64,000 nucleotides of DNA, from the NCBI GenBank assembly GCA_003402705.1, contig QQNF01000001.1, positions 74,184 to 138,183 of the forward strand, read 5' to 3'. The translations under genes were made by a program, and so were the position numbers. This DNA comes from Verrucomicrobiota bacterium. GTDB lineage: Bacteria > Verrucomicrobiota > Verrucomicrobiia > Verrucomicrobiales > V1-33. This document shows, piece after piece, positions 5,265 through 61,845 of the stretch. The first letter of the stretch is position 1; every line of letters starts with the position of its first letter. The notes under the pieces are model-generated. The model searched no databases. It saw only the letters and a list, made by a program, of their open reading frames with translations, and had not been told where the DNA came from.

Positions 5265-5413
5265 GACGATTTAAGCGAACGTCAAAGAGCACGCACCCCT
5301 ATCAGCGAGGGCGAGCGTCGATCAATGGGTTGAGGTTGAAACCACGAAAGATCATGTAAAGAGGGCGGCTGATAGGGGTTGCTGTGTCTCGTCTTGTTCG
5401 GCTTCTCCGATTA

Positions 5414-26313: not shown

Positions 26314-26590
26314 CGCAATTGGACAGACCTCTTCGCAGGGGCGCCTCGCCACCTCCAGAGGTCCCGCCACCTATCAGGCTCTCCCGCCCCAAGTCGACAC
26401 GCCCCTTCCAGCGTTCTCCCTGGCCACCCGGACCTCCAGCACCCCGCAATTGGACAAGGGACCTTCAGAAGCCTGGCCATCTGAACGATCCGCCTCCTCA
26501 TCCCGCAGGGATGACAGCATGAAGCCGGTGGTCGAGCTCGGCACGAGCGACACCACCAGAACGCCGCAATCGGACAGGCCTCTTCGCAGG
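26314..26590. repeat. Cluster of three copies of a dispersed ~26-nt repeat CGCAAT(T/C)GGACAG(G/A)CCTCTTCGCAGG
   Basis: Copies are at 26314-26339, 26445-26471 (diverged) and 26565-26590. Further copies are at 39287-39312 and, inverted, at 9436-9457. Confidence 0.65.
26473..26557. repeat. Left ~85-bp direct repeat flanking vapBC-1
   Basis: CTGGCCATCTGAACGATCCGCCTC(C)TCATCCCGCAGGGAT...GAAGCCGGTGGT(C/T)GAGCTCGGCACGAGCGACACCACC. About 90% identical by eye to 27338-27421. Confidence 0.75.
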
Positions 26591-26654
26591 GACCTACCGG
26601 CGCGAACCCGATGCCTTGCGCTTGCGCTGCATTGCGGCAATGCGATTATCCTGC

Positions 26655-26897
26655 ATGACTGTAGTCGTTCCCATCAGCAAGCGAGGCACCGTGACGCTGC
26701 CTCCTGCCCTTCGCCGCAGGTTTGGTCTCGAAACCGAGAACCCCTTGGTGATCATCGAAGAACGGGACGGGGAACTGGTTCTGCGCCCTGCCGTGGCAGT
26801 GGCCGTGCGCGATCTGCCGAAGGCGGTCGTCGAGCGGTGGATTCAGGAGGATGAAGCGGGAATGCGGGAATTCGAGGCAACGCCGCCGCCGCAATGA
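26655..26897 (+). CDS. vapB: AbrB/SpoVT-type antitoxin (VapB-like)
   Basis: MTVVVPISKRGTVTLPPALRRRFGL is an AbrB/MazE looped-hinge motif. Its stop overlaps the vapC ATG. Confidence 0.75.
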   Translation: MTVVVPISKRGTVTLPPALRRRFGLETENPLVIIEERDGELVLRPAVAVAVRDLPKAVVERWIQEDEAGMREFEATPPPQ

Positions 26898-27349
26898 TTC
26901 TATTTCTGGATACCAGTGTCCTTCTGGCCGCCGCTGGCTCGGAAACGGGCGCGTCCCGTTACGTCTGCACCCAAGGAGGGCCACGGCATGGATGGAGGCT
27001 CCTCACCTCAGGTTATTGCGTGCAGGAAACGCTGCGCAATCTGCCCAAACTCGGCTCCGGCGCGGCATTGGCCTGGACTACAGTTGTCGAACCGGTAATC
27101 GAAATCGTGGCGGATGTCGTGTCGCTAGATCAGGCGCTCGTCTTCCCCAAGGCCAAAGACAGACCAGTCGTCATTTCGGCTCTCGCGGCCCAAGCAGGCG
27201 TCCTGCTCACTCTCGACCGAACCGATTTCCACGCATCGCTCGGGCCCCAGCTCTACGGCATGGACATCCGCACCCCTGCCGACTTTCTCATCGAGCAGCG
27301 CCTCAAAGGAAGCATCTGCATCCGGAACCCCAGAGGTCTGGCCATCTGA
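26894..27349 (+). CDS. vapC: PIN-domain toxin (VapC-like)
   Basis: MILFLDTSVLLAAAG (first acidic PIN residue) and ...LLTLDRTDF... The last 4 codons and the stop lie inside the right flanking repeat. Confidence 0.8.
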   Translation: MILFLDTSVLLAAAGSETGASRYVCTQGGPRHGWRLLTSGYCVQETLRNLPKLGSGAALAWTTVVEPVIEIVADVVSLDQALVFPKAKDRPVVISALAAQAGVLLTLDRTDFHASLGPQLYGMDIRTPADFLIEQRLKGSICIRNPRGLAI

Positions 27350-27421
27350 ACGATCCGCCTCTCATCCCGCAGGGATCACCGGCTGAAGCCGGTGGTTGAG
27401 CTCGGCACGAGCGACACCACC
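27338..27421. repeat. Right ~85-bp direct repeat flanking vapBC-1
   Basis: Pairs with 26473-26557. Contains the hairpin CACCGGC-TGAA-GCCGGTG. Confidence 0.75.
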
Positions 27422-27517
27422 GGAAAACGCACCAAATTAAATCGCATGCCCGGCAGGGGTGCCGCCCTGAGCCCTCCAGCGGTCAGGCCACTCAACCGTT
27501 CTGTTCCTGATAGCGCT

Positions 27518-31808: not shown

Positions 31809-31836
31809 CTCTGTTCCCTCCGTTTCCTCCTGTTGA
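31809..31836 (-). repeat. Operon motif copy 4
   Basis: CTCTGTTCCCTCCGTTTCCTCCTGTTGA, between the DUF3604 stop (31841) and the next ATG (31758). Confidence 0.6.
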
Positions 31837-31840
31837 CGCT

Positions 31841-33631
31841 TCAGGGCGTGAACCAGATCGGCGAGGTCCACGCACGTTCCTGAATGGAAACCTGCACGCC
31901 GGCGGGTGCTTTCACTCCGTAGCGCGCGGCGTCGTAGGTGCTCCAGCGCGGTGTCGGGATTTCCAGAACGCGGGCGTAATAAAGGGCGCGGAGTGATGGG
32001 TCGAAATCGGGATCGGTCCACACATGGGAGAGTTCCGCCGCGCCGATCGAATTCGCGAAGGTGGCCTTCTTCTCATCCACCGTGTTGCCCACGGGCGGCA
32101 ATTTTCCGTCAGCGCCGGGTTGCCGGTCGCCCGACCAGACGACGTCATAAATCTTCTCGTGCGTCTTCCCGGACTTGTCCACCCAGCCCTTGATGATCTG
32201 GATACGATCGAGGTTCGCTCCGTCAGGATCCTTCATCGCCGAGACGATGAATTTCGGAGATTTACCCTCCGGCGCTGACTTCAAATCACCGCCCATCGGC
32301 ACACCGCCAGCATAGGCCGCTTTCGCCATGCCAGGCTTCTTGACGATGGCTGCGTCATAGTCCCAGCCACCGAAGAATCTCGCTGTGATGCGCGTGCCGC
32401 TCGTCGCAAAGGGTTCCTTGCGGTGCATCCCATCCCAGATGCCCTCGCGTGTGTTCGCATCGGCCCAGACACCCGTCAGCGCGCCGGGCGTGAGATCTTT
32501 GCCTTTGATCCAGCCGCCCACTTCGCTGGTCATGCGGCGCTCGGCGGTCCCGTCAGCTGCCCCGTGACTGCCAGCCATGAAATTGTCCTCGGCCGTATTC
32601 GAAGGCGTGCCGTTGTGAGTGTCGGTCCCGCCCACGAAGCCGTATTTGAACGGGTTCACGCCTAGCGCTTGCTCGACAGCGAGTCCTTTGATCACCCCGT
32701 CGCGCACAAAATTCCCCTTGGAGAAAGCACGGCCGCTGTAGTCCTGGATCGAATCGGCATTCTCAAAGTCGGCGAATTCATCAGTGGGCCAGAATGTCCG
32801 ATGCACCTCGGAGTTGCCCTTGATCTGCATCATCTCGACGAGCGGCTCGAAGTGGCTCCGCGTCTCGGCATACGCACGGTCGATCGGCTTCCCCGCGCCG
32901 TCCACATCGGCAAACATCATCCCTTTGCTCGCATTGGAATTGTGAGGAATCGCAAGCACCTTCATGCCCCGCTTTTCGAGACCGGCCATCCACGCCCACA
33001 ATCCGTCCTCGCGACCGATGTCGATGTAGCTCATTACCTTGTCAGGTACGTTCGTGTCGCGGAAGAACACGTTGCGGTGCAGGTTGCCGCCCTTGGGCGC
33101 GCCACTCCATTCAAACGCCGGGATAGTCGTGAACTCGCCGGGCTTATAGTGCTTCGCGGCCGCCTCCATCACGACTTTCCAGCCACTCTTCTCCGTCTCG
33201 ATTCCCGCGTAGAAGGGCGGGTGCTGCGGATTGCCGCCCCGGTTGCTCTTGACCACATACTCGAGAAACCACCTCTCGCGCTCCTCAATGCTCGTCAGTC
33301 CGCGCAACTGCTGGATCAGCTCCTGGTTGTATCCGGGAGCCCCCTCTACCAGCGTCGAATACATCTCGCCGAGATACTCCGCATGATCCGTGACCGCCGC
33401 CCAGTCGAGCGGACGGCGCAGCTTGAATTTCACCCCGTTCACCTCGACCTCCCCGCCCTTCGCGAAAAGATAGGCGTCGGAAGGCGTCAGCCGCGCGCCG
33501 CCGATATACGCGTCGAGCGAGTAGGCGGTGTGAACATGCTGCTCGCCGAAGAACGCACGCCGGTCCTGAGCATCGCCAGCGGTGGGGATCCAGGCGCAGA
33601 GCGCGGCGAGGAATGCTGACGTAGTTCTCAT
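31841..33631 (-). CDS. DUF3604 protein (PHP-like putative metallohydrolase), secreted
   Basis: ATG at 33631. FFGEQHVHTAYSLDAY...AAVTDHAEYLG...IPHNSNASKGMMF... Paralogous to 34319-36277. Confidence 0.8.
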   Translation of the reverse strand: MRTTSAFLAALCAWIPTAGDAQDRRAFFGEQHVHTAYSLDAYIGGARLTPSDAYLFAKGGEVEVNGVKFKLRRPLDWAAVTDHAEYLGEMYSTLVEGAPGYNQELIQQLRGLTSIEERERWFLEYVVKSNRGGNPQHPPFYAGIETEKSGWKVVMEAAAKHYKPGEFTTIPAFEWSGAPKGGNLHRNVFFRDTNVPDKVMSYIDIGREDGLWAWMAGLEKRGMKVLAIPHNSNASKGMMFADVDGAGKPIDRAYAETRSHFEPLVEMMQIKGNSEVHRTFWPTDEFADFENADSIQDYSGRAFSKGNFVRDGVIKGLAVEQALGVNPFKYGFVGGTDTHNGTPSNTAEDNFMAGSHGAADGTAERRMTSEVGGWIKGKDLTPGALTGVWADANTREGIWDGMHRKEPFATSGTRITARFFGGWDYDAAIVKKPGMAKAAYAGGVPMGGDLKSAPEGKSPKFIVSAMKDPDGANLDRIQIIKGWVDKSGKTHEKIYDVVWSGDRQPGADGKLPPVGNTVDEKKATFANSIGAAELSHVWTDPDFDPSLRALYYARVLEIPTPRWSTYDAARYGVKAPAGVQVSIQERAWTSPIWFTP

Positions 33632-34286: not shown

Positions 34287-34313
34287 CTCTGTTCTCTCCG
34301 TTGCCTCCTGTGA
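34287..34313 (-). repeat. Operon motif copy 5
   Basis: CTCTGTTCTCTCCGTTGCCTCCTGTGA, 30 nt upstream of the ATG at 34257. Confidence 0.6.
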
Positions 34314-34318
34314 AACCC

Positions 34319-36277
34319 TCACGGATTGTACCAAATGGGCGAGGTCCACGCGCGCTCCTGGTGTTTCATCGGCACCCCGGCCGGCATTTTGATCCCGTAG
34401 CGGACGCAGTCGTAGGCGGTCCAGCGCGGAGATGGGATCTCGATGACGCGGGTGTAGTAGAAGGCGGGCTGCGCCGGATCGAAGTCAGGGTCGATCCATT
34501 GCGCGGCGAGGTCGGGGTCGCCGATGGTGTTGGTCCACGTAGCGTTGGCAACGTCCACGGTGTCGCCCACGGGCGGGAGTTTGCCGTCCGCGCCAAGCGG
34601 GCGCTTGTCGGCGTCGCCCCAGGCGACCTCGTAAACCTTCTCGTGTGTCTGGCCGTCCTTGTCGAGCCAACCCTTGATGATCTGGATGCGGTCGAGATTC
34701 GCACCGAGCGCGTCCTTCATTGCGGAGAGGAGGAAGGTCGGTGCCTTCGCGCCGTCCGGACGTTTCGGCATGTCCCCACCCATCGGCACGCCTTTGGCAT
34801 AACCGACCGACGGCAAATAGCGGGTCTTCGCATCTTCCGCCGAATAGTCCCAGCCGCCGAAGAAACGCGCGGTGATGCGGGATCCGGAGGTGGCGTAACA
34901 TTCCCTGCGCATCATCGCATCCCAGAGCGCTTCGCGCGTGTTTTCCTTCGCCCAAACCGCAGCGTAGCCCGCAGCGGTGTAATGCCACGTGTAGCGCGTC
35001 TTGCCAAAACCGACCTTCGAGACGTGCTCCCAGCGGTTCGTGTTAGGCTCCTGAAACGGCAACTTGCCGTAGAAATTGTCCTCCTCAATCGAGGTTAGCG
35101 AGTTGTGCACGTCCGTGCCGCCGATCATCCCGATCTTGAAGGGATTCGTGCCGAGTTTCTGCTCCAGCATGAGACCATTCATCAGCGCGCCGCGGATGAA
35201 GCTGAAAGGCCGCATCTCCGGCGTGGCGGGTTTGTCCGTGAGCGAGAGATTGCCATACTCCCAGCCGGCGACGCCGAAGTCCGAGAACTCGTCGTTTGGC
35301 GAAAGCGTCGGGTGGGTCTCGCTGTTGCCCTTGGTCTGCATCACTTCGTGCAGCGGCTCCCAGCGGGCCCGGCGCTTCGCGTAGTCGGAGGTGAGCGGGT
35401 TGCCCTTGAAATCGGTGAGGGCAAACATCAGGCCGTTCGAAAGGTTGCCGTTGTGCGGAATGGCTAGCATCTTGCCGCCGGTCTTCTTTTCGTAAGCATC
35501 CATCCACTTCCAGAGATCCTCGGCGTCTTCGCTCTGCCACGCGGAAAAGGGCATGATCTGGTCAGCCTTGTCCTTGCCATCACGGAAGAGAATGTTGCGG
35601 TGAAGGTTGTTGCCGCCTGGGACCGAAGTCCACTCGTAGGCGATCATCGCGGTGAAGCGGCCGGGATCATTGTATTTCTCGGCGGTCGCCGTGTATTTCT
35701 GCCAGACCGATTTCATGATCGGGCCGACCGTCTTCGGATCTTTAATGAGCGGGGGGAGCGTCCCGTTGCCCTGTCGGACGACGATGTCGCCGGTAGCATC
35801 CGCCGCCGCCTTGCCGCCGTCCTTCATGGCCTTGTTCCAGCTCGCTATCACTTCATCCTTCATGAAGGCTTCGTTGCCTTCAAATACCTGATACATGATC
35901 CCGAGCCCCTCGGCGTGGTCGCTGATGCACAGGAAATCGAGCGGCCGCGAAAGCCTCGCCGGAATTCCCGTCGAGGAGACGACCTCCTCCCCCTTCGCAA
36001 AACGATAGGCGTCTTCCGGGCTGAGCCGGTCCCCCGCCATGAAGGCATCGCCGGAATTCGCGGTGTGGTGATGCGTGTCGCCAAAGAAGACCCGCGTCGG
36101 GAAATCCCGCTGCGCGTACGCCGAGTAGGCCTTCTTGTCGCCCGCCGGATGATGGGCGATCGGGCCCTCCTCTCCCTCCGTGGCAACGCCCGATTTCGTA
36201 GATTCTTGAGAGAAGACGGCGGGCGGACCGGCCGCGAACGCCAGCAAGAAGGACAGAAAAGTTAGTGCGGTTTTCAT
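34319..36277 (-). CDS. DUF3604 protein, second paralog, secreted
   Basis: FFGDTHHHTANSGDAF...LCISDHAEGLG...IPHNGNLSNGLMF... The C-terminal ...ERAWTSPIWYNP parallels ...ERAWTSPIWFTP in the first copy. Confidence 0.8.
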   Translation of the reverse strand: MKTALTFLSFLLAFAAGPPAVFSQESTKSGVATEGEEGPIAHHPAGDKKAYSAYAQRDFPTRVFFGDTHHHTANSGDAFMAGDRLSPEDAYRFAKGEEVVSSTGIPARLSRPLDFLCISDHAEGLGIMYQVFEGNEAFMKDEVIASWNKAMKDGGKAAADATGDIVVRQGNGTLPPLIKDPKTVGPIMKSVWQKYTATAEKYNDPGRFTAMIAYEWTSVPGGNNLHRNILFRDGKDKADQIMPFSAWQSEDAEDLWKWMDAYEKKTGGKMLAIPHNGNLSNGLMFALTDFKGNPLTSDYAKRRARWEPLHEVMQTKGNSETHPTLSPNDEFSDFGVAGWEYGNLSLTDKPATPEMRPFSFIRGALMNGLMLEQKLGTNPFKIGMIGGTDVHNSLTSIEEDNFYGKLPFQEPNTNRWEHVSKVGFGKTRYTWHYTAAGYAAVWAKENTREALWDAMMRRECYATSGSRITARFFGGWDYSAEDAKTRYLPSVGYAKGVPMGGDMPKRPDGAKAPTFLLSAMKDALGANLDRIQIIKGWLDKDGQTHEKVYEVAWGDADKRPLGADGKLPPVGDTVDVANATWTNTIGDPDLAAQWIDPDFDPAQPAFYYTRVIEIPSPRWTAYDCVRYGIKMPAGVPMKHQERAWTSPIWYNP

Positions 36278-50727: not shown

Positions 50728-50735
50728 TGCAAGGT

Positions 50736-50758
50736 GGCACAGGAATCCTGCCTGTGAC
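50736..50758. repeat. Hairpin repeat copy 2 (GGCACAGGAATCCTGCCTGTGAC), 9 nt after the DUF1552 stop
   Basis: Same element as 3558 and 54500. The next ~17 nt (TTGGAAAGCTCCGACC) also match the 54500 copy. Confidence 0.6.
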
Positions 50759-50901
50759 TTGGAAAGCTCCGACCTAGCAAACCCCAAGCCTCCACCGAGC
50801 CCCAGAAGCCCGCCGTCCGCAGGACCACGGCGCAACCGCGTGACGGGAACGTTGCCGCACCTCAGTTGAAGCCCGGTCCCGGGCAGCGGTAGCGTCCGCC
50901 C

Positions 50902-53571
50902 GTGCGTACCATCTGCATTTCCATGATTCTAGCCTCTCTGGTGCTGCCCGCGGCGGCGGCATCGACCGAGTGGACTTTCGCCAATCCCGCGGACCGACTG
51001 GCCGCCACGGGAGGTCCGGCCGCCCTCGCCTATCATGATCCCGCGGCCGAAGGCTGGGGACCGGCCCTGACAACCTTCGGCCGGGCCTCCGCCCTTGGGC
51101 TGCCTGCCATGCCTGGTGGCGATGCCGACGTGATGGCGTTCCCCGCCTGCACCGCGCAGCAGGGCTATCGCCTCACTCACGGGGCAATGCCCAACGGTGC
51201 CTACGAGCCCGACGGCCGGGTCTCGAACTACACCATCGTCATGGATGTGCTGTTCCCCGCGGCCTCGGACGCTCAGTGGCGCGGCCTCTGGCAGACGTCG
51301 CCGGACAACAGCGATGACGGCGACTTCTTCGTTCAGAATACCGCATCCGGCGGCATCGGGATTAGCTCGAACTATCTCGGCCGCATCCTGCCGGACACAT
51401 GGCACCGCGTGGTCATCACCGTCCGGGCCGCCCCCGGAGAAGGACACTGCCAGCGCTACATCGACGGCCTCTTCATCGGCGGACAGGGCACCACCGGCTC
51501 CGGTCTTGATCTGCGCTGGTCCCTTGGCGGCGAAGCGCTCTTTTTCACCGACAACGACGGGGAGACGGCGGCCGGCTACTGCGCCGGACTCGCCTTCATC
51601 GACCGCGCGCTCTTTCCCGCCGAAGTGGCGGCTCTGGGTGGTCCGCATGCCGTGGGACCGCTCGTTCCCGGCAATCCGCCGCCGCCCGCGGAGCCCATGG
51701 TGCGGCGCGTCGGCGTCATCGGCCACCGCGGCGGTGCTTTCGACCGGGCTCCTGACAACACTCTCGCCGGCATCCGCGCCGGCATCGCCGACGGCGTGCA
51801 GGGCATCGAGGTCGATACGCGCCTGACCGCCGATGGTGTCTGTGTCGCCTTCCATGACGGGACGGTGGATCGCACCACCGACGGAACCGGTGCCGTGGTG
51901 GACCTGACCCTCGCCGAACTCCAGTCGCTGGACGCGGGTTCGTGGTACGATCCAGCCTTCGCAGCCGAGCGGGTGCCGTCCCTCGCCCAAGTGTTCGAAA
52001 CGGCGAAGGGCAAGTGCATCATCTTTCTCGACATGAAGACAAATGGTCAGGCCGACGCGATTCTCTCCGCCGTCGCGTCCACAGGCTTTCCTCTAACGGA
52101 TCTCTGGTTCTGGACCACCAATTCCACCTCTGCGGAAGAGATCAGAACGGTCATTCCGCAGGCGCGCCTGATGTGGGGTGCGCCGGACGCTTCATGGTCT
52201 ACGGACCCGAATTACTTCACCGGGCTCAAAGCGCAGGGCGTCATCGGCTTCAGTTTTTCGGCCGGCAGTGGCGCAGTGGATAGCCGCTTCTGTGCCCGGG
52301 CCAAGGAGGAGGGGATGATCGTCGAGATCTTCACCATCCTGACACCGGACGCCATGCGCGCTGCCGCGGTGTCTGGCGTCGATTATGTCGAGAACGACTA
52401 TCCAGCGGCCATGAACCGCCTCCAGCCGGCGCAGACACCCGCAGCGCGGCTTCCGTTTCCGGCCGACGGTGCCACGGGTGTGCCGCCGGATCTCGTAATG
52501 CGCTGGGTGACGGGCCTCGGCGCCACACAGCGGCGGGTCTTTTTCGGGACCAGCGCGCCGGGCAGCGATCTCGGAGTCCGCTCGTCCGACCTCCTCGCAC
52601 GCAGCAATCTGGCGTGGGGCACCACCTTCTTCTGGCGGGTCGATGAAATCAGCGCCACCGGCACGACCACGGGGCCGGTCTGGAGCTTCACGACTCTTCC
52701 GCGCCCGCCGTCGGCCAATCTCGTCGGGCTGTGGCTTTTCGACAGGGCCGACGATCCCGGGCATGCCACCATCGGTCAGGATCTCGCGATCGAAGGCGAT
52801 GCTCCGGAATGGCTGGCAGTACAGGCCGACGACGCCGGACGGGAAGCTTCCGGCGTGATCACTACTGCCGCCGGGCCCGCCAGCCGCTTGCGCTGCACCC
52901 ATGGCATCGGCGCCAATGGCGGCGGCACATTCACCAACCGCTACACGATCGTGATGGACATCCTGTCGCCTCCTGGCAGCCGGGGCTCATGGCGCAGCCT
53001 GCTCCAGACCAACTCGGCCAATACCAACGATGGCGACTACTTCATCCGCACCGATAATCGTGTCGGCGTCGGAGCGCTGGGCTACGGTCCGGCCATCGAT
53101 TCCTCTTCATGGAAGCGCCTGGCTTTCTCAGTGGATCTCGCGAACCCGACATCGGCGTCATTCATCCGCACCGTTCTGGACGGTGGAACGCCGTTCGTGC
53201 ACTCGCCGCAGCCGCGGGACGGCCGCTTCGCGCTGGATCCCTCGGTGCTCTTTTTTGGCGACGAGGACGGTGAGAACGCGCCCATGCACGTAGCCATGGT
53301 CGCGCTTTTCGACGGTTCGTTGAGTCTGGAGGAAATCACAGCGCTGGGTGCCACGCTTCCCGAGGGTCTCTACCCGCGGCCGTCGCTTGAGGTGGGCCGT
53401 TCCGGCAACCGTGTCACCCTGACATGGCCACCAACACCGGGCTACCTCCTCCAGCGCTCCCCGGGCGCAGCAGCATGGACGGACCTTCCGGAAACATTCG
53501 GCCTCGGTGCATGGTCGGAGCCCATCGCCCCCACACCCGGCCGCATGTTCTTCCGGCTCGCGCCCCGCTAG
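50902..53571 (+). CDS. Secreted multidomain protein: LamG-like / glycerophosphodiester phosphodiesterase / FN3-like / LamG-like
   Basis: GDPD core VIGHRGGAFDRAPDNTLAGIRAGIADGVQGIEVDTRLTADGVCVAFHD. It is flanked by two copies of a ~200-aa module also found in the next gene. GTG 50902 or ATG 50923. Confidence 0.75.
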   Translation: MRTICISMILASLVLPAAAASTEWTFANPADRLAATGGPAALAYHDPAAEGWGPALTTFGRASALGLPAMPGGDADVMAFPACTAQQGYRLTHGAMPNGAYEPDGRVSNYTIVMDVLFPAASDAQWRGLWQTSPDNSDDGDFFVQNTASGGIGISSNYLGRILPDTWHRVVITVRAAPGEGHCQRYIDGLFIGGQGTTGSGLDLRWSLGGEALFFTDNDGETAAGYCAGLAFIDRALFPAEVAALGGPHAVGPLVPGNPPPPAEPMVRRVGVIGHRGGAFDRAPDNTLAGIRAGIADGVQGIEVDTRLTADGVCVAFHDGTVDRTTDGTGAVVDLTLAELQSLDAGSWYDPAFAAERVPSLAQVFETAKGKCIIFLDMKTNGQADAILSAVASTGFPLTDLWFWTTNSTSAEEIRTVIPQARLMWGAPDASWSTDPNYFTGLKAQGVIGFSFSAGSGAVDSRFCARAKEEGMIVEIFTILTPDAMRAAAVSGVDYVENDYPAAMNRLQPAQTPAARLPFPADGATGVPPDLVMRWVTGLGATQRRVFFGTSAPGSDLGVRSSDLLARSNLAWGTTFFWRVDEISATGTTTGPVWSFTTLPRPPSANLVGLWLFDRADDPGHATIGQDLAIEGDAPEWLAVQADDAGREASGVITTAAGPASRLRCTHGIGANGGGTFTNRYTIVMDILSPPGSRGSWRSLLQTNSANTNDGDYFIRTDNRVGVGALGYGPAIDSSSWKRLAFSVDLANPTSASFIRTVLDGGTPFVHSPQPRDGRFALDPSVLFFGDEDGENAPMHVAMVALFDGSLSLEEITALGATLPEGLYPRPSLEVGRSGNRVTLTWPPTPGYLLQRSPGAAAWTDLPETFGLGAWSEPIAPTPGRMFFRLAPR

Positions 53572-53626: not shown

Positions 53627-54442
53627 ATGAAATCACCAGCCATTGCCATCCTTGTCCTCCTCAGCGCTCCCGTCGCGCTGCCCGCCGCCGTCCTCACAGG
53701 TCTCTGGGAGTTCGACGACCAGTCAAATCCCGGCGCGGCCACCGTGGGCGTGCCCCTGAGCTTCGCGGGTGCGGCACCGGGAACATGGAGCGCAGCGCTT
53801 TCCGACGATCAGGCGGACAGCCTCGCCGGCGTCCTCACCACGCCGCCCGCCGCGGCCGCCACAAGGTTCATCGCCACCCACGGCATCGCTCCGAACGGTG
53901 GCGGGGCCTACGTCAACGAATACTCGGTTCTCGTCGATCTCTTCTCGCCTGCAGGCAGCCGCGCCGCATGGCGCACCATCTTCCAGACGAATGAGAACAA
54001 CACCAACGACGCCGACTACTTCATCAGTCCCACCGGCAATGCCGGCGTCAGCGCCCTGACATATTCCCCGGCTGCGCTGGACGCCTCCAGCTGGACTCGG
54101 CTCGTCGTCACGTTCGACCTCGCTTCGGCCGGACCATCCGTGGTCAGAACCTATCTGAACGGGGCCCCGTTCCACACGCATGCGCTCTCCGGGGGACTGG
54201 ACGGCCGCTTCGCGCTGGATCCCACAGTGCTCTTCTTCACCGACGAGGACGGAGACAACGCGCCCCTGCACATCGGGGCGGTGGCAACCTTCAGCGGCGC
54301 TTTGTCAGCGGGAGAAGTCGCGGCGCTCGGGGCCGCCGGAGCCGCGGTCATCCCAGAGCCGCAGACAGCCGGTCTCCTCGCAGCCGCTCTTGCCGGTCTC
54401 GCGGGCCGTCGACGCTCGCGCGTCCAGATCACGGCACCGTAA
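53627..54442 (+). CDS. LamG-like PEP-CTERM protein
   Basis: Signal peptide, the same module (…NEYSVLVDLFSPAGSRAAWRTIFQTNENNTNDADYFIS…), and a C-terminal VIPEPQTAGLLAAALAGLAGRRRSR. Confidence 0.75.
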   Translation: MKSPAIAILVLLSAPVALPAAVLTGLWEFDDQSNPGAATVGVPLSFAGAAPGTWSAALSDDQADSLAGVLTTPPAAAATRFIATHGIAPNGGGAYVNEYSVLVDLFSPAGSRAAWRTIFQTNENNTNDADYFISPTGNAGVSALTYSPAALDASSWTRLVVTFDLASAGPSVVRTYLNGAPFHTHALSGGLDGRFALDPTVLFFTDEDGDNAPLHIGAVATFSGALSAGEVAALGAAGAAVIPEPQTAGLLAAALAGLAGRRRSRVQITAP

Positions 54443-54499
54443 CGGGTGGCCCGTCAACCGGTAGCGGCGACCGGTCACCGCCGTCCTAGCAAGCACACT

Positions 54500-54522
54500 G
54501 GCACAGGCATCTTGCCTGTGAC
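54500..54522. repeat. Hairpin repeat copy 3 (GGCACAGGCATCTTGCCTGTGAC), 58 nt after the PEP-CTERM gene stop
   Basis: Same stem CACAGGCA/TGCCTGTG, followed by TTAGAAAGCTCCAGCC. Confidence 0.6.
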
Positions 54523-54635
54523 TTAGAAAGCTCCAGCCTCCTGTCCAAACAAAACGGCGGCCGCGAATCAAAGTTCGCGGCCGCCGCAGTTGCAGCAAGG
54601 CCGTCCCGGCCTTGTCTCCGAATTAGCAATCCCCC

Positions 54636-56666: not shown

Positions 56667-57929
56667 TCACGCCTTGACCCGGCGCACGTTCGCCCCCAGC
56701 CGCGACAGCTTGTCGTCAATGTGCTCGTAGCCGCGGTCGATGTGATAGAGCCGGTTGATCTCCGTCTCGCCTTCCGCACCCAGCCCCGCCAGCACCAGCG
56801 CCGCACTCGCCCGCAGATCGCTCGCCATGACCGGCGCACCGCTCAGTTGCGGCACTCCCTTGATGACCGCCGTCGCCCCTTCCAGCGTGATCTGCGCCCC
56901 CATCCGGTTCAGTTCCGGCACGTGCATGAACCGTTGCGGGAAAATCGTCTCCGTGATCACACTGATCCCCGGAACGCTAGCATAAAGCGCCGTGAACTGC
57001 GCCTGCATGTCCGTCGGAAATCCGGGATACGGCTCCGTGCGAATCTCCCCGCCCCGCGGATTCTCCGCGCGCGACACCGTGATGCTCTCGCCCTCCACCG
57101 TCACCGGATAACCACTATCTGTCAGGGTCTTCAGAAACGCCGTCATGTGTTCCGGACAGCAGCGCCGCAGCGTCACCCGCTTGCCCGCAATCGCCCCGGC
57201 AATCAGAAACGTCCCCGCCTCGATCCGGTCCGCGATCACCGTGTGCTCCGCCCCGTGCAGCTCCCGCACCCCTTCAATCACAATCCGCCGCGTCCCCGCC
57301 CCTTCAATCTTCGCCCCCATCCGGATCAGGAAATTCGCTAGGTCCTCCACCTCCGGCTCCATCGCCGCCCCTTCAATGACCGTCGTCCCCGGCACCAGCA
57401 CCGCCGCCATCATCAGATTGTCCGTGCCCAGCACCGTCGATCCATGCTTGCCCCGCATGTTCACCTCCCGGCCACCCATGCCCTCGACCGCCTTGATGTG
57501 CATGTTCCCGCCCTGCACCGACACACTCGCGCCCAATTGCTCAAGCCCCCGCAAATGCAGATCCACCGGCCGGTCGCCAATCACACAACCTCCCGGCAGC
57601 GACACCATCGCCTCCCCCGTCCGACCCAGCAGCGGCCCCATCACACAGATCGACGCCCGCATCCGCCGCACCAGATCGTAAGGCGCTTCGCTCTTCACCT
57701 CCTCCGCCTCCACCATCACCGTCCCGCTCGCCCGTTCCACATGCGCCCCCAGACTCGCCAGAATCTGCGTCATGTAATTCGTGTCGCTCAAATCCGGCAC
57801 CCGGTGAATCACACACCGGTCCCGCGTCAGCAGCGTCGCCGCCAGAATCGGCAGCGCCGAATTCTTCGATCCACTGACATAAACGTCCCCCTCCAGCAGG
57901 GAGCCTCCGGTAACGAGCAGTTTGTGCAT
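56667..57929 (-). CDS. murA: UDP-N-acetylglucosamine 1-carboxyvinyltransferase
   Basis: MHKLLVTGGSLLEGDVYVSGSKNSALPILAATLL...LPGGCVIGDRPVDLHL... Confidence 0.95.
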   Translation of the reverse strand: MHKLLVTGGSLLEGDVYVSGSKNSALPILAATLLTRDRCVIHRVPDLSDTNYMTQILASLGAHVERASGTVMVEAEEVKSEAPYDLVRRMRASICVMGPLLGRTGEAMVSLPGGCVIGDRPVDLHLRGLEQLGASVSVQGGNMHIKAVEGMGGREVNMRGKHGSTVLGTDNLMMAAVLVPGTTVIEGAAMEPEVEDLANFLIRMGAKIEGAGTRRIVIEGVRELHGAEHTVIADRIEAGTFLIAGAIAGKRVTLRRCCPEHMTAFLKTLTDSGYPVTVEGESITVSRAENPRGGEIRTEPYPGFPTDMQAQFTALYASVPGISVITETIFPQRFMHVPELNRMGAQITLEGATAVIKGVPQLSGAPVMASDLRASAALVLAGLGAEGETEINRLYHIDRGYEHIDDKLSRLGANVRRVKA

Positions 57930-58009
57930 GAAATAGTCAGGAAAATGGGGATTCCCAACCATCACCCCCCACCCGCCACCTTCAAGGAAGAACTCACCCC
58001 GCAACCACC
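57851..58009. repeat. Left direct repeat of the vapBC-2 insertion (functional murA 5' end plus upstream sequence)
   Basis: The first 61 nt are about 87% identical to 58870-58931, and the terminal ACTCACCCCGCAACCACC is shared with 58951-58968. Confidence 0.75.
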
Positions 58010-58036
58010 ACAGACGCACCACTGCGCCACCTCAGT

Positions 58037-58462
58037 TCAAGACTTCAGATGCAGAAACTGGATGCCGGGGAAGAGCGCAAAATCAGCATCCAAGGAGACG
58101 AGGCGCGACCCGCTTGAGAGTGCGAAGGCGGCAAGGTAGGCGTCCGTCCACATGCGATGGGGAACGGCTGCCTGCGTGGTAAAGGCCTGGAAGTGAGCAT
58201 CCAGACTTGCTGGCTCGACAAGAAACCGGATGTTTGGCAGCACCAGCAAGTCCCGATAAATGGCCCACGCTTCAGCGTTGGTTTTGGGCTTAACAACTGC
58301 CCTGGGGTTGGTGGCCAGCCGGAGAAAGCCCTGCATGGTCGTGCGACAGAAGGCGAACTGGTGAGCCCCGTGACGACTCCAATAGTCGTGGGCGACATGG
58401 TGATGCACATGCCGTTGATCCACGAGCGCCAACCAGATGTTGACGTCGAGCAGATCAATCAT
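58037..58462 (-). CDS. vapC: PIN-domain toxin (VapC family)
   Basis: MIDLLDVNIWLALVDQRHVHH...TDAYLAAFALSSGSRLVSLDADF. Confidence 0.8.
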   Translation of the reverse strand: MIDLLDVNIWLALVDQRHVHHHVAHDYWSRHGAHQFAFCRTTMQGFLRLATNPRAVVKPKTNAEAWAIYRDLLVLPNIRFLVEPASLDAHFQAFTTQAAVPHRMWTDAYLAAFALSSGSRLVSLDADFALFPGIQFLHLKS

Positions 58463-58755
58463 GGCCTTGGCTGCGACTGGTTGGAAACACGGTGGAAACT
58501 CGCGACCTCGTCTTCTTCAAGAATGGCGTACAGCTCCGCATTGGAGCGAGCCGGGGTCACGGTGCCGTCGGCCTCCCACGCCACGGGGAGTGAATTGGGA
58601 TTGCGAGGAACCGTGTCCCTTCCCAATCGTTGCGGCCCACGCAAACCAGCCTCGATGTAGGTGGCGAGCAGTTCCTTGAGAGTGACGCCCTGCTGGACAG
58701 CGCGTGTTTTGACTTCCTTAAAAAGTGAGTCGGGCAGGTCGAGGGTCGTTCTCAT
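58459..58755 (-). CDS. vapB: VapB-type antitoxin (RHH-like)
   Basis: MRTTLDLPDSLFKEVKTRAVQQGVTLKELLATYIEAGL. Its stop overlaps the vapC ATG. Confidence 0.65.
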   Translation of the reverse strand: MRTTLDLPDSLFKEVKTRAVQQGVTLKELLATYIEAGLRGPQRLGRDTVPRNPNSLPVAWEADGTVTPARSNAELYAILEEDEVASFHRVSNQSQPRP

Positions 58756-58869: not shown

Positions 58870-58968
58870 GCAGCGCCAAATTCTTCGATCCACCGACATA
58901 AACATCCCCATTCTAACAGGGAGCCTCCGGTGCGCCGAAATCAGGGAAAAACTCACCCCGCAACCACC
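58870..58968. repeat. Right direct repeat of the vapBC-2 insertion (decayed pseudo-copy of the murA 5' end, start-codon region deleted)
   Basis: GCAGCGCCAAATTCTTCGATCCACCGACATAAACATCCCC...CAGGGAGCCTCCGGT...ACTCACCCCGCAACCACC. Confidence 0.75.
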
Positions 58969-59555
58969 GAACCCCCACGTCCCCGCCGCCGCCTCCCCGC
59001 CAACAACGCCGCCGCCGTCAGCTATCCCGCACTCCCCGACTCCGGCACCACCGTGACCGTCACCGGTCCAAACAAAACCGAGCTGACCACATGCGTTCCT
59101 GGCACCAATGCCTCCGGCGCAATCCCCAGCGCCCCCGGACCACCCGGCACTAGCGCAAACCGCGCCTCACTCTGCCCCGGCCCCGACGCGAACGCCCGAT
59201 CAAACCCGAACGAAGCATAACTTCCATCCGCCCCGATCAGCAGCGAAACCACATCATACGCCCCACCGCTCCCCGTTTCCCTCACCCGCGCAACTGCCGG
59301 AAACACGCCCACAATGTCGCTCGCCCCACCGGAACCCGGCCCGCTCGCCACAAACATCCCCGACGGCAATTCCATCCGAAAACCACTGCTCAGCACCATG
59401 CTCACCGGCACCAGCGGATTCGCCGACATTTCCTCAAACGTGTACGTCGTCCCGCCCAACCCATCCGGCACCACCACCATCGCGATCGCCGCCCCCACCT
59501 CCGCCATCCCCAGCCATAACAAACAACACACAGAAACCGATCGGAACATCATCAT
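58953..59555 (-). pseudogene. Secreted PEP-CTERM protein gene with an in-frame TAG inside the sorting signal
   Basis: ...VTVTVVPESGSAG-TAG(59022-59024)-LTAAALLAGRRRRGRGGSVVAG-TGA. The annotated ORF stops at the TAG. Confidence 0.5.
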
Positions 59556-59567
59556 TGCGTTAGAAAA

Positions 59568-59933
59568 TTGAAAGCCTCGCCCTTCAGGCATCCGCTCCCA
59601 TCACCCCACTTCCCCCACCCCGCAACCGCACCGACCACCGAAGTCTGCTCCAATCATTACAGAACATCCAGCCATGACGTCTATGATGCGAGCGATCTCA
59701 TCAAACCTGGGCGTGACGCATACGTCCTACCGCCCTCCGACTGCCCCGCCTGCGGACGTCGGAAGCTGCTGGTGCGGGAGGATGCCTTCCGCACGGTCAG
59801 TGGCGCATCGAAGGACCGGGCCTCACGGGTGGTGTCCCTGAAAGCCTGGGAACTGAAGGTCACCTTCAGCGAACTTGGCTGGGCGGCGGTGAAACCGGGA
59901 ACGTCAACCTGCAGGGCATTCGCAGCCTTGTAG
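59568..59933 (+). CDS. Repeated-module ORF, copy A (most diverged; start uncertain)
   Basis: Contains ...GRRKLLVREDAFRTVSGASKDRASRVVSLKAWELKVTFSE, homologous to copies B and C. Confidence 0.3.
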   Translation: MKASPFRHPLPSPHFPHPATAPTTEVCSNHYRTSSHDVYDASDLIKPGRDAYVLPPSDCPACGRRKLLVREDAFRTVSGASKDRASRVVSLKAWELKVTFSELGWAAVKPGTSTCRAFAAL

Positions 59934-59958
59934 TCAAGGCCGTGGAACATCGATTTAG

Positions 59959-60032
59959 CTAGCAGACACTGCGCACCGTGCCCTCCTTCACTTCCCGGTG
60001 CCTCGGCACGGGAGCGACTCATTGAGCTTCAT
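59959..60032 (-). pseudogene. hicA: Vestigial hicA toxin (internal deletion plus frameshift)
   Basis: An ATG overlaps the hicB stop (ATGA) and gives MKLNESLP.. then a stop. A shifted frame encodes VPRHREVKEGTVRSVC-stop, resembling the HicA C-terminus (P.H..kE[IL]k.GTlrsI.KQ). Confidence 0.35.
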
Positions 60033-60268
60033 GCCGGAGCCAGTTCAATGCGATGCCGCACGCTACCTGGGGCGGGCTTGCGCTTCCGGGCTTCATCCCG
60101 GTGGTAGTCGAGCACAAGACGCAGCGCATCCAGCAGATTGGCCTCCGCCTCCTCTACCGTCTCCCCTTCCGAAAACACTTCCGGAAACTCTTCAAACGCG
60201 CAGGTGAAGCCTCCCTCGGGGGCTGGCTCATATACGGCCGTCAGATTTAGTTTGGCAGATGATTTCAT
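60029..60268 (-). CDS. hicB: HicB-family antitoxin (UPF0150 fold)
   Basis: LTAVYEPAPEGGFTCAFEEFPEVFSEGETVEEAEANLLDALRLVLD is a typical HicB N-terminal domain. Confidence 0.75.
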   Translation of the reverse strand: MKSSAKLNLTAVYEPAPEGGFTCAFEEFPEVFSEGETVEEAEANLLDALRLVLDYHRDEARKRKPAPGSVRHRIELAPA

Positions 60269-60351
60269 GGCCGCAGTGTGCGGGACAGAGCCTTCCGCTT
60301 CAAGTTCAAGTTGTCCGCTGGCATTCGCGAACCCGCCAGGGGTACCTCCCC

Positions 60352-60594
60352 ATGCCCCCCGGCCGCGAACAACAGAAGCCCTTGGAGCTGCTAGTGCGGG
60401 AGAATGTCTTCCTCACGGTCAGCGACGCATGGAAGGACCGCACCTCCGGCATGGTGTCTTTGAAGGGCCGGGAACTGACGGTCCATTTCAGCGACCCAGC
60501 AAAGCGCGATGCATTCATCGATCGACGCATGGATCGGATCCCCCACGTTCGACAGCTTTGTCACTCCCAAAAAGATCAGCGCCCCGGCCCATGA
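60352..60594 (+). CDS. Repeated-module ORF, copy B
   Basis: MPPGREQQKPLELLVRENVFLTVSDAWKDRTSGMVSLKGRELTVHFSDPAKRDAF... Divergent from hicB. Confidence 0.4.
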   Translation: MPPGREQQKPLELLVRENVFLTVSDAWKDRTSGMVSLKGRELTVHFSDPAKRDAFIDRRMDRIPHVRQLCHSQKDQRPGP

Positions 60595-60654
60595 AAACGA
60601 AGGCAACTCCGGAAAACCAGATCGCTATCCCGCCCATCAGGTTCTAGCATTTCC

Positions 60655-61221
60655 CTACGTATCCAGTGCATCAAGCAGCGGTTTCAGGTCAAAAAACATC
60701 GTTCTGAACTGTTCACCTTCGCGGGGTACACCGCTTGGATCGGCGAAGACAAATCCGAACTTTTCGTAATAGCCCGCCACATCGTAATCGTTGTCCGGAT
60801 CGAAGAGCGCGTCCACCGTGACGAAACGTGCTCCTACCCGGGGACAAAGCTCGCATGCGATGTAGCGAAATGCCCATTTCATCAGCGCAGTCCCGGCTCC
60901 TTTCGCCCGTTGGTCTGCCGCCAGCAGGCCGATCTTGATTGCAGGGAAGCTCCGATACCTAACTTTTTCTGCTTCCAGCAGCGGCGATTCCACGAGCAGC
61001 CTGTCCGAGATCAGAGTAATGTAGGCAGCGAGCACACCATCCACGTCCAGATACCAGCACGCACAAATCGACGCGGTACACTCCCGCGCGATCTTTCCCT
61101 GCTTCCAGTAGGTTCCAAACTCTCCGCGCCGAGGGCGGAATCCCGCATGGGACGGCATCTGCAACGGGTTCAGCCGTCTGACCGGAAGCGCCGCGAAGTC
61201 AATTTCCTCATATCGGCTCAT
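60655..61221 (-). CDS. GNAT acetyltransferase of the TacT/KacT-like toxin type
   Basis: ...FPAIKIGLLAADQRAKGAGTALMKWAFRYI...GARFVTVDALFD...VAGYYEKFGFVF. Its ATG overlaps the stop of a small upstream ORF. Confidence 0.65.
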   Translation of the reverse strand: MSRYEEIDFAALPVRRLNPLQMPSHAGFRPRRGEFGTYWKQGKIARECTASICACWYLDVDGVLAAYITLISDRLLVESPLLEAEKVRYRSFPAIKIGLLAADQRAKGAGTALMKWAFRYIACELCPRVGARFVTVDALFDPDNDYDVAGYYEKFGFVFADPSGVPREGEQFRTMFFDLKPLLDALDT

Positions 61222-61412
61222 CGCTGCCCGCCAGAACGTGCAGTCCTTTTCGTTATCCCCGTGGGAGCGGCTTTCATTTCCGCGACAAGGGTTGCGATGA
61301 AGGCTTGGCCCTGAGGGGTGCTGATCGGTTTGCCACTTTTCACGGCACGCAGAACGCTCGTCGCCTGTTTACCGGTGGCCGGGGCAGAAATGGTGTCGAG
61401 CCTGAGCTTCAT
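61218..61412 (-). CDS. Small protein translationally coupled to the GNAT gene (putative antitoxin, not obviously DUF1778)
   Basis: MKLRLDTISAPATGKQATSVLRAVKSGKPISTPQGQAFIATLVAEMKAAPTGITKRTARSGGQR. ATGA overlap at 61218-61221. Confidence 0.45.
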   Translation of the reverse strand: MKLRLDTISAPATGKQATSVLRAVKSGKPISTPQGQAFIATLVAEMKAAPTGITKRTARSGGQR

Positions 61413-61448
61413 GGTCCCCAGTATCGCGTTCCGGCAGCGGTCCCGCAA

Positions 61449-61643
61449 ATGAACTTTGCAGCAGCTTTCGACGACGCCAACCGCGGCCGACAGAAGGCCA
61501 TGGAGGTGCTGGTGCGGGAGAATGTCTTCCGCACGGTCAGCGACGCGTGGAGGGACCGGGCCTCCGGCATGGTGTCTTTGAAGGGCCGGGAACTGACGGT
61601 CACCTTCAGCGACCCGGCAAAGCGCGATGAGTTCTTCACCTAG
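61449..61643 (+). CDS. Repeated-module ORF, copy C (64 aa)
   Basis: MNFAAAFDDANRGRQKAMEVLVRENVFRTVSDAWRDRASGMVSLKGRELTVTFSDPAKRDEFFT. Divergent from the GNAT operon. Confidence 0.45.
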   Translation: MNFAAAFDDANRGRQKAMEVLVRENVFRTVSDAWRDRASGMVSLKGRELTVTFSDPAKRDEFFT

Positions 61644-61845
61644 CTGGAATCCCGGAAAACCAAGTTCCCGGACGCTCCGCCCTCCGTGGATGCGATGGAG
61701 CAGCTGGAGTTGTTTGGGGAGCAGTGAGAAGATCTCACCCCCAGCCTCACGAATCCTCGACTCTGCCAAGTGAAGAAAGAGGGTGCGCTCCAGAGGTCTG
61801 GCCAGCATGGGTTTCTGGTGCGGCGGGAACTACTTACCACCTCAA

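Follow-up and report, generated by a model that had tools for sequence, protein, structure and literature searches.

Three repeat copies at a toxin–antitoxin and defence-gene hotspot in uncultured Verrucomicrobiaceae are probably stacked tail remnants of a decayed gene

A short coding module is present in three direct, same-strand copies (A, B and C) within the 64-kb stretch of DNA analysed here, hereafter the window, and a search of the whole window found no others (Table 1). The layout described in the first-pass annotation was borne out, a minus-strand gene standing before each copy (a 189-aa ORF, a hicB-like gene, and a GNAT-like gene with a 64-aa gene, respectively) and an SNF2 helicase gene closing the series. 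The “PEP-CTERM” label attached to the 189-aa ORF did not survive, as the window ORF has no Pfam or NCBIfam match and its orthologue in L007, one of the related loci on Verrucomicrobiaceae metagenome contigs (L001–L018) used for comparison, has a sub-threshold one only (E 0.0097). The hicB-like gene had been counted as part of a toxin–antitoxin (TA) gene set; the gene is there, but its hicA partner has been lost and only a remnant is left. In L006–L008 the hicB-like gene adjoins HicA, and an intact 146-aa HicA_toxin+DUF5397 gene is found in L007 (Pfam E 1.7e-11). The GNAT-like gene has been deleted independently in L001–L005 (60340–61137) and in L017 (60770–61195), and the 64-aa gene overlapping its start shares 42 of its 48 N-terminal residues with a 50-aa gene of L001 whose partner is a VapD/Cas2-like gene.

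Table 1. Features of the repeat region and its surroundings (window coordinates).
Feature	Position	Strand	Remarks
Decayed murA 5'-end duplicate	58870–58990	-	Against 57851–58031: 93% over 40 nt, 84% over 25 nt, 76% over 50 nt, with a 1-nt indel
57-nt permuted-junction segment	59667–59723		Just upstream of copy A; in relatives just downstream of the relic
Copy A	59727–59872	+	Most decayed piece; about positions 10–164 of copy C, with a 9-nt deletion
hicA/DUF5397 toxin gene remnant	59869–60018	-	92–94% identity to L001 7721–7868 and L014 2417–2565
hicB-like antitoxin gene, 79 aa, orphaned	60029–60268	-	Sub-threshold Pfam matches: UPF0150 (E 7.7e-4), HicB_lk_antitox (E 4.7e-3)
Copy B	60363–60519	+	5' piece of the relic; positions 33–189 of copy C; ends abruptly at 60519
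Gene-1 3' remnant	60521–60595	+	Last ~25 codons of the first gene of the putative operon; also in L017
GNAT-like gene, 188 aa, putative toxin	60655–61221	-	Weak Pfam matches: Acetyltransf_7 (E 1.2e-3), Acetyltransf_1 (E 0.011)
64-aa antitoxin-like gene	61218–61412	-	Overlaps the GNAT start; no family match
Copy C	61449–61727	+	Longest; putative in-situ 3' remnant of a ~354-aa gene, codons ~263–354
PLD-SNF2 helicase anti-phage gene	61846–64000, runs off the window	-	NCBIfam NF042964 (E 2e-260); PADLOC PLD_Helicase (E 6e-167)

The repeat itself is real. Copies B and C are 88% identical over 157 nt (60363–60519 against 61481–61637; blastn E 4e-53), and 109 nt of copy A (59764–59872) are 83.5% identical to C and 79.8% to B, with the homology of copy A extending back to about 59727 once its deletion is allowed for; copy A also carries the radical substitutions D>G, W>S, G>R and R>W. 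One open frame is kept by all three copies, as had been claimed. The differences between B and C had further been described as biased towards third codon positions, and this was not upheld: they fall 6/6/7 on positions 1/2/3 and amount to four synonymous against 11 non-synonymous codon changes, and the antisense frame is equally open. The 64-aa product ascribed to copy C proved to be a shortened one. Its frame meets a premature TAG at 61641–61643, shared with L010/L011, where L001/L006/L007/L018 have TGG, and it runs on to 61727; over its length copy C has 94% nucleotide identity to the full 92-codon ORFs of L001–L005.

The module peptide corresponds to the C-terminal ~90 residues of an uncharacterised family of ~354-aa proteins comprising at least 149 clusters, and a profile of the peptide matches the C-termini (residues ~265–350) of proteins of 350–375 aa. 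In its full form the peptide is a 75–92-aa ORF ending ...WLESRKTKFPDAPPSVDAMEQLELFGEQ, and it has 14 close homologues, no more, among 5.8 billion clusters. The closest view of the parent is offered by an intact 354-aa ORF in L021, residues 268–351 of which match copy C at 70% identity over 84 aa (tblastn E 3e-32). When this protein is searched against the window only residues 268–351 (C), 273–326 (B) and 283–317 (A) are recovered, and the N-terminal ~260 residues, with their PEPEL...YFEAK motif, are absent; the window thus holds fragments and not a member gene. The first-pass annotation had itself named a fragment of a larger decayed gene as what would speak against its reading, and the C-terminal match to the ~354-aa family shows just that. 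The ~280-nt segment seen in copy C, here called the relic, would then be the last ~92 codons of such a gene, and the module the 5' two-thirds of the relic.

In every locus examined the ~354-aa gene is directly preceded by an overlapping gene of 420–460 aa, and the intact pairing is found in L021 and L023–L028. Precomputed annotation labels this first gene PF25924 MJECL33 in relatives; our own Pfam scan did not reproduce the label, and a literature search on MJECL33 gave no papers. The parent ~354-aa protein yields a confident predicted model (pLDDT 93), for which the weak top Foldseek matches are PD-(D/E)xK nucleases, and a (Q)LxLF tail is conserved at the C-terminus throughout the family. Nothing significant was obtained from Pfam, NCBIfam or PADLOC with the module peptides, the antisense ORFs or the parent proteins, nor from the PDB, either with the parent-family profile or by Foldseek with the parent and module models. 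Searches of the region (E<=1) and the whole window (gathering score) against Rfam, together with a tRNA scan, returned nothing.

Judged by its sequence context, copy C is what remains, still in place, of the 3' end of a two-gene operon, with a GNAT/antitoxin cassette lying where the gene body was. The end of the partner gene survives upstream: IDAWIGSPTFDSFVTPKKISAPAHE (window, 60521–60595) matches IEAWIGARRFDSFLTAKNISPPVHE of the 459-aa ORF of L021 at 16 of 25 residues (E 2e-11), and the start codon of gene 2 is still present at 60591–60593. Between this stub of ~25 codons and copy C lies the GNAT cassette, the spacing being 865 nt as against 801 nt in the intact gene. The operon would once have stood at this site in a Verrucomicrobiaceae lineage and would have been destroyed in place, the cassette now occupying the place of gene-2 codons ~6–262; no strain of this lineage was found with an intact operon at this exact locus.

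The arrangement murA...relic...defence gene recurs in L001–L018 with differing cassettes on both sides. Beyond the relic, where the window has its PLD-SNF2 helicase gene as one of many alternatives, the defence side holds in relatives nSTAND/metallophosphatase, type I restriction–modification (R-M), TIR/Thoeris-like, AbiEi or caspase-like genes. Each related locus has one relic copy, whichever cassettes it carries and however many (one to several), the sole exception being L017. The reading of the module as a new small regulator or antitoxin attached to each cassette is not supported by this distribution, nor by the different truncation of A and B and the identity of the peptide as a family tail. 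Nor do the searches support a type II antitoxin or small regulator, there being no Pfam, NCBIfam, PADLOC or PDB fold match and no copy-per-cassette co-occurrence across loci.

The leaders of the three copies are found elsewhere as allele-specific single copies: A-type in L009/L018 (also L015/16), B-type in L006–L008 and L010–L014, and C-type in L001–L005. Copy B is contiguous with hicB exactly as in the single-copy relatives, and window positions 60019–60519 are 95% identical to L007 5961–6461, where the relic continues uninterrupted; the window can be described as an L007-like allele plus a block of 1118 nt. The relic of L007 is B-like at its 5' end and C-like further on, and leader breakpoints recur at relic positions 33 and 56. 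At the level of the population, the relic would be the one conserved stretch between TA/Abi cassettes on the murA side and large defence systems on the other, existing as at least three alleles which differ in 5' erosion and in the abutting cassette, and the window would carry three of these alleles in tandem.

As the three copies match three alleles found separately in other samples, it might be argued that a metagenome assembler concatenated strain variants of a single hotspot. However, the A-hicB-B order and its junctions recur at 92% identity in L017, which comes from a different sample and has a private internal deletion in the GNAT gene; L001–L005, which stem from five samples, are best derived by deletion from an arrangement like that of the window; and P0010 reproduces the B junction peptide. 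An assembly artefact is thus hardly credible. The module is instead probably a set of three leftover tail pieces of a decayed gene, stacked by recombination at a TA/defence hotspot.

A different account, which we regard as unlikely, is that the relic has been exapted, its C-terminal domain living on by itself in a small gene, whose product might bind DNA or a partner, with at least the C-type ORFs and possibly B being functional; such a function would explain why the sequence has been kept at the hotspot. Apparent omega among the full-length relics ranges over 0.15–0.67 and is about 0.3–0.4 (pooled about 0.4), not 1, the frame is intact in five of eight haplotypes, the predicted fold is a compact helix-hairpin-helix unit (core pLDDT ~70–85), the C-terminal (Q)LxLF tail is conserved in the parent family, and in a distant MAG a relic-type 112-aa ORF (L022) lies beside the intact copy in L021 with a dN/dS of 0.095 between them. 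However, low dN/dS to intact genes can stem from earlier time spent within an intact gene. A comparison of L022 with the window for synteny gave weak paralogue-level matches only. Against exaptation there are also nonsense alleles in three of the eight haplotypes, with premature stops in the window, L010–13 and L018, N-termini which are variable and non-homologous, and the lack of any match to a family, PADLOC model or solved structure. Variable sites are distributed 15/12/25 over the codon positions, which is not a significant departure from the composition-adjusted neutral expectation, and the divergence of the relic, at 55–75% of the murA synonymous rate, is near that rate. For copy A, omega is 0.72 against the full-length copies and 1.25 against its L017 counterpart; copy B, at 0.48, cannot be told apart in this respect from the full-length copies (0.40). 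These tests do not separate weak constraint from neutrality, and some constraint on the full-length relics, or a recent origin of the relics, has to be allowed for.

Decidedly unlikely, too, is the idea that selection keeps the relic as an integrase-free platform for cassette stacking, that is, as a ~280-nt anchor possibly encoding a small protein with a (Q)LxLF tail. If this were true, host recombination would bring in, swap and remove TA and defence cassettes on either side of the relic, and would have left a second footprint in the duplicated 5' end of murA.

The ends of the copies bear on how a stack of decayed tail pieces would have come about. Relic copies are cut at varying 3' points (positions 134, 164 and 189). 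The junction of A with hicA has a 4-nt microhomology, GCGA (59869–59872), and no other junction shows a clear one, the rest being abrupt or ambiguous. The permuted-junction segment upstream of copy A is 91% identical to L018 2575–2631 and 89% to L006 3361–3417, and is inverted in L009. Every unit follows a partial copy of the one conserved segment and occurs elsewhere as a sole allele, which is the pattern of a displacement array. On at least two occasions, one allele would have been joined to another by an exchange within the relic or beyond it, homologous or anchored in homology, together with an illegitimate junction inside the relic, once at position 164 and once at 189. With one homologous and one illegitimate junction, a cassette would be added and not swapped, and a truncated relic would be left upstream. 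The mechanism may have been homology-facilitated illegitimate recombination or an unequal illegitimate crossover, and the order of events may also have been the opposite, as recombination between the repeats of an ancestral array could have given rise to the single-copy alleles. Copies A and B would now be non-functional scars, usable as direct repeats for the later loss of cassettes.

The first-pass annotation had also offered the module as a homology arm for serial acquisition. Part of this stands, as the relic is common to all hotspot alleles and would anchor the recombination which best explains the array; there is no sign of a dedicated site. A dedicated cassette system, integron-like or recombinase-driven, with one site per cassette, would fit the cassette-sized, TA-rich units of 0.6–1.1 kb with a ~150-nt repeat between them, the leader breakpoints repeated at positions 33 and 56, and a short hairpin, GTGCGGGAG...CTTCCGCAC, within the module. 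However, the repeat is the tail of a coding gene with differing 3' ends, its folding is no better than that of shuffles (z -1.55, -1.79, +0.79, -0.18), and the structures of B and C differ. No R'/R'' core sites were seen on inspection by eye, nor an integrase among the genes listed for about a dozen Pfam-annotated related loci. The recurrent 5' breakpoints merely mark three alleles with common upstream sequence, and all relatives but L017 have a single copy, however many cassettes they carry. We consider such a system very improbable.

At the opposite edge of the hotspot, the decayed murA duplicate and the intact murA bracket a vapBC cassette (58037–58755), and on the contig of P0002 a 198-aa gene directly abuts murA. 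The duplicate reads as a second scar of the same type. The notion that every TA cassette is flanked by long target duplications was rejected as a general mechanism: the ~95-nt repeats around a vapBC pair at 26.6–27.3 kb belong to an intergenic repeat which is dispersed and also occurs in unrelated settings, such as after clpB. Repeats also surround a brnTA-like pair.

A candidate “new small protein family” is hereby removed and replaced by a case of cassette accumulation without a dedicated recombinase, in which the tail of a dead gene would provide shared homology at a TA/defence hotspot of an uncultured Verrucomicrobiaceae lineage and partial copies would record the order of additions. Scars such as these stacked remnants are of an ordinary kind, though the present example is a neat one. 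For annotation, fragments of this kind should not be called genes, and the result is also of use in studies of defence-island turnover. A by-product is a widespread, uncharacterised two-gene operon, consisting of the 420–460-aa gene and the 354-aa protein with its nuclease-like motif, which would once have resided in a defence hotspot; the 354-aa protein has a confidently predicted fold without a solved relative.

The locus resembles the defence-island and TA hotspots in that fixed flanks (murA and the relic) surround strain-specific TA, Abi, R-M, TIR, nSTAND and PLD-SNF2 genes, but its inner anchor is no housekeeping gene: it is a pseudogene-like relic which lies mid-island and is itself eroded from both sides. 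With chromosomal integron arrays it shares small cassettes, often TA, between mutually similar repeats of ~100–150 nt, whereas the repeats in the window are coding, vary in their ends and have no attC structure, and the annotation of the related loci shows no integrase. Homology-facilitated illegitimate recombination is reportedly known, as are merodiploids generated by transformation. One-sided homology with the 4-nt GCGA fits the A/hicA junction, and the anchor is duplicated; here, however, the mechanism is read from scars in the sequence only.

The orphan immunity arrays of the Vibrio cholerae T6SS have been explained by homology-facilitated illegitimate recombination, with the displacement of Rhs C-termini as an analogous case (Kirchberger et al., 2017, PMC5361080). 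As in these arrays at polymorphic-toxin loci, and in the orphan CT/immunity modules of CDI, each successive cassette of the window follows part of a conserved gene segment, the units are found in other strains as the only or the active allele, and recombination anchored in the conserved segment would, through an illegitimate junction, bring in new DNA and displace the old. There is, however, no hint that the displaced pieces of the window can be reactivated, its cassettes consist of type II TA modules, which lie upstream in the opposite orientation, and its repeat is the tail of a dead gene where theirs is a conserved core belonging to a living toxin gene. As the anchor is the relic of a decayed gene, the array would therefore work like a Rhs/CDI/T6SS array without being one.

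The module that the first-pass annotation had noticed three times on the plus strand, and had proposed as a possible new small regulator or antitoxin-like partner or else as a homology arm for serial cassette acquisition, is what remains, in stacked copies, of a larger gene that decayed at a TA/defence hotspot. The repeat itself is real and the homology-arm alternative holds in part, but the main interpretation, a new small gene, was wrong. A repeat search and blastn recovered three direct plus-strand copies and no more in the window: copy B (60363-60519) and the matching part of copy C (61481-61637) show 88% identity over 157 nt (E 4e-53). For copy A (59764-59872) identity over 109 nt is 83.5% with C and 79.8% with B; in a MAFFT alignment its homology reaches upstream to about 59727, given a 9-nt deletion. 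The frame first proposed is open in every copy, and the GC content of copy C by codon position (0.62/0.46/0.88) speaks for its being, or having been, a coding frame; the antisense frame is equally open. The third-position bias taken as a sign of constraint was not seen, the 19 differences between B and C being split 6/6/7 over the codon positions; among the altered codons, 4 changes are synonymous and 11 non-synonymous. An identical run of 41 nt common to B and C is long enough for occasional homologous loop-out. Searches for Rfam families and tRNAs found none, and folding of the module as single-stranded DNA gave no unusual structure.

The 64-aa product of copy C had only 14 close relatives (66-95% identity) among 5.8 billion protein clusters, the complete form being a 75-92-aa ORF which ends ...FFNWLESRKTKFPDAPPSVDAMEQLELFGEQ. 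At 61641-61643 the window has TAG in place of the Trp codon of FFNW, and past it the same frame runs on to 61727, encoding LESRKTKFPDAPPSVDAMEQLELFGEQ, so that copy C is the entire unit, interrupted by a nonsense mutation. When species-representative genomes were scanned, the unit turned up in Verrucomicrobiaceae/Verrucomicrobiota MAGs; in one of these (L021) the module sequence forms the C-terminus of a 354-aa ORF overlapping the stop of an upstream 459-aa ORF. The small-ORF profile matches residues ~265-350 of many 350-375-aa proteins (1.84 billion representative proteins searched), and with the 354-aa protein as query, hypothetical proteins of ~355 aa were found in at least 149 clusters, from Verrucomicrobia, Planctomycetes, Acidobacteria and others. 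In all contexts examined this gene (gene 2) is preceded by a 420-460-aa gene (gene 1), with stop and start overlapping. Gene 1 carries the precomputed label PF25924, MJECL33, in the L023-L028 contexts, which our own Pfam scan at E<=0.01 did not reproduce, and the ~354-aa parent family had no match in Pfam, NCBIfam, PADLOC or PDB sequence searches. The operon is widespread and unannotated (L021 966-3399; L023 8752-11062; L025 8734-11065). The confident AlphaFold model of the parent protein (pLDDT 93, pTM 0.90) gave no significant Foldseek match; the weak best matches were mostly PD-(D/E)xK nucleases, with which a PEPEL...YFEAK motif, read from the family alignment, is in line. In the model the module is a helix, beta-hairpin, helix unit with a flexible tail; the C-terminal tail of gene 2 retains a (Q)LxLF-like motif that may resemble beta-clamp-binding peptides.

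With the 354-aa parent as tblastn query, gene 2 is found in the window as three pieces, residues 268-351 (C), 273-326 (B) and 283-317 (A), so that the supposed small gene is a fragment of a larger decayed one. An unexpected tblastn match showed that the last residues of gene 1 survive at 60521-60595 (IDAWIGSPTFDSFVTPKKISAPAHE against IEAWIGARRFDSFLTAKNISPPVHE in the parent; 16/25 identical, E 2e-11), and the ATG of gene 2 persists at 60591. The GNAT/antitoxin cassette sits between this remnant and copy C, which lie 865 nt apart versus 801 nt expected in an intact gene. Over its N-terminal extension too, copy C can still be aligned with the parent (NFAAAFDDANRGRQKAMEVLV and TQGAFDYLGPKRQKAMEALV, respectively); leaders in the other copies show no alignment to it beyond the homology limits of those copies. 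Copy C, then, is the gene's own tail, left in its original place after a TA cassette replaced the body.

Genes neighbouring the relic copies, and other repeats of the window
Feature	Coordinates	Remarks
hicB-like gene	60029-60268	UPF0150/HicB matches, sub-threshold
GNAT-like gene	60655-61221	overlaps 64-aa gene
64-aa antitoxin-like gene	61218-61412	overlaps GNAT-like gene
GNAT/antitoxin cassette	60655-61412	strand opposite to gene-1 remnant and copy C
SNF2 helicase (PLD-helicase anti-phage protein)	61846 to window end	NCBIfam NF042964 E 2e-260; PADLOC PLD_Helicase E 6e-167
~95-nt repeats	26490-26561, 27355-27469	flank vapBC-like pair 26616-27349
~90-nt direct repeats	3613-3703, 4510-4600	about 90% identical; flank brnT/brnA-like (BrnTA-like) pair 3909-4423
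REP-like hairpin element TGGCACAGGCATCCTGCCTGTGAC, three copies	3557-3597, 50735-50775, 54499-54539	
Direct repeat	31809-32470, 34287-34957	spacing ~2.48 kb; identity in 72-80% range
Direct repeat	53217-53352, 54199-54334	within two adjacent paralogous secreted proteins; identity in 72-80% range

The evidence as to whether the relic is still a gene is mixed. Pairwise dN/dS among full-length relics is 0.15-0.67; pooled over the stretch that B also covers, it is about 0.40. For B versus the full-length copies it is 0.48 and for A 0.72, or 1.25 when A is compared with its counterpart in the related contig L017. Variable columns fall 15/12/25 by codon position, which at a GC3 of 0.88 is, by our own calculation, not clearly different from the neutral expectation, and the relic has diverged at 55-75% of the murA synonymous rate in the same genomes, 2-3 times murA overall. 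Stop codons occur in 3 of 8 haplotypes (at one and the same Trp codon in the window and L010-13, near the start in L018); L018 and copy A of L017 have another in common (VQVR*DAF). Such nonsense alleles, common to otherwise different haplotypes, suggest exchange among copies. Between an intact gene (L021) and a relic-type ORF (L022), both of one distant MAG, dS is 0.76 and dN/dS 0.095; the low ratio may simply reflect time as intact genes. Copy A is therefore treated as dead, copy B is most likely dead, and C-type ORFs are treated as weakly constrained or recently inactivated; it seems improbable that the relic has retained a function.

Comparison with 18 related contigs carrying the locus (L001-L018), one further contig having come without DNA, revealed a common architecture of murA, a variable minus-strand TA/Abi run, the plus-strand relic and a variable large defence system. 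Cassettes on the murA side include Abi_2, HicAB-DUF5397, PIN/MazE and VapD-like genes, among others; beyond the relic lie nSTAND/metallophosphatase, type I R-M with AAA_13, TIR/Thoeris-like, AbiEi, caspase-like plus hydrolase followed by the same PLD-SNF2, or C1 peptidase systems. In L018 a block of hydrolase, caspase-like (Peptidase_C14) and 106-aa genes (2658-5624) stands between the relic and a 95% identical PLD-SNF2, which makes the relic's downstream side an insertion point too. A 198-aa gene usually adjoins murA. The 189-aa ORF of the window at 59022-59591, labelled PEP-CTERM in the first-pass annotation, stops early (…VVPESGSAG) and is without any family match; its L007 orthologue of 198 aa has only a sub-threshold PEP-CTERM match (E 0.0097).

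Each related contig has one relic copy, L017 excepted, and three types of 5' boundary allele recur: C-type, with an antitoxin/GNAT remnant upstream (L001-5), B-type, with hicB upstream (L006-8, L010-14), and A-type (L009, L015/16, L018). All three are in tandem in the window, which equals the allele of its closest relatives (L007/L008, 98% identical in the murA region) plus a block of 1118 nt made up of a 961-nt cassette region and a 157-nt duplicated relic. In L017, from a different sample, the order A-hicB-B and its junctions recur at 92% identity, along with a GNAT-internal deletion private to this contig, and L001-5 resemble the window-type arrangement minus 60340-61137 (B and most of GNAT). 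The array is therefore real and has been present in more than one lineage. The GNAT-like toxin gene has been removed or gutted by two independent deletions, 60340-61137 (L001-L005) and 60770-61195 (L017), and the antitoxin-like gene is retained despite them. Of its 48 N-terminal residues 42 are common to a 50-aa gene in relatives, partnered in L001 (7018-7457) and L009 (6321-6760) by a VapD/Cas2-like 96-aa protein; the antitoxin head is the same and the toxin different, GNAT versus VapD/Cas2-like.

The truncated copies differ in their 3' ends (134 in L015/16, 164 in A and 189 in B, numbered along copy C). At the right end of A the relic and a hicA/DUF5397 remnant share a GCGA overlap (59869-59872), and copy B ends at 60519, the gene-1 remnant starting by 60521. 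The 57-nt segment adjoining the left end of A (59667-59723) is found in L018 and L006 on the immediate downstream side of the relic, a permuted junction of the kind that tandem duplication or circle integration would give. Tabulated across all copies, the variants form a reticulate pattern, with patches common to non-allelic copies. These features do not fit a site-specific system; they fit one homologous or homology-anchored exchange plus one illegitimate junction. Imported allelic DNA could have entered by homology-facilitated illegitimate recombination, or alleles could have undergone an unequal illegitimate crossover; either event would gain a cassette and leave a truncated relic behind. 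Single-copy alleles may also have arisen by loss between the repeats.

A scar of the same type marks the other edge of the hotspot: the murA 5' end (57851-58035) is duplicated at 58870-58990, decayed and with a 1-nt indel, intact murA and this copy flanking a vapBC cassette (58037-58755). The murA relic is also present in L007, L009 and L015; in the contig of protein P0002 murA is directly abutted by the 198-aa gene. The idea of long target duplications around every TA cassette of the genome was tested and does not hold as a general rule: the vapBC pair at 26.6-27.3 kb lies between copies of a dispersed intergenic repeat that also occurs in unrelated contexts. This ~95-nt repeat, without a match in Rfam, recurs in other metagenome contigs (L029-L035), for example downstream of clpB and once near another PIN/AbrB pair.

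The uncharacterised parent operon and the stacking of cassettes without an integrase are worth following. The module is a further example of an already known type of recombination scar, and in its proposed mode of recombination the array can be likened to T6SS orphan immunity arrays and Rhs C-terminal displacement, for which the same explanation has been put forward (PMC5361080).
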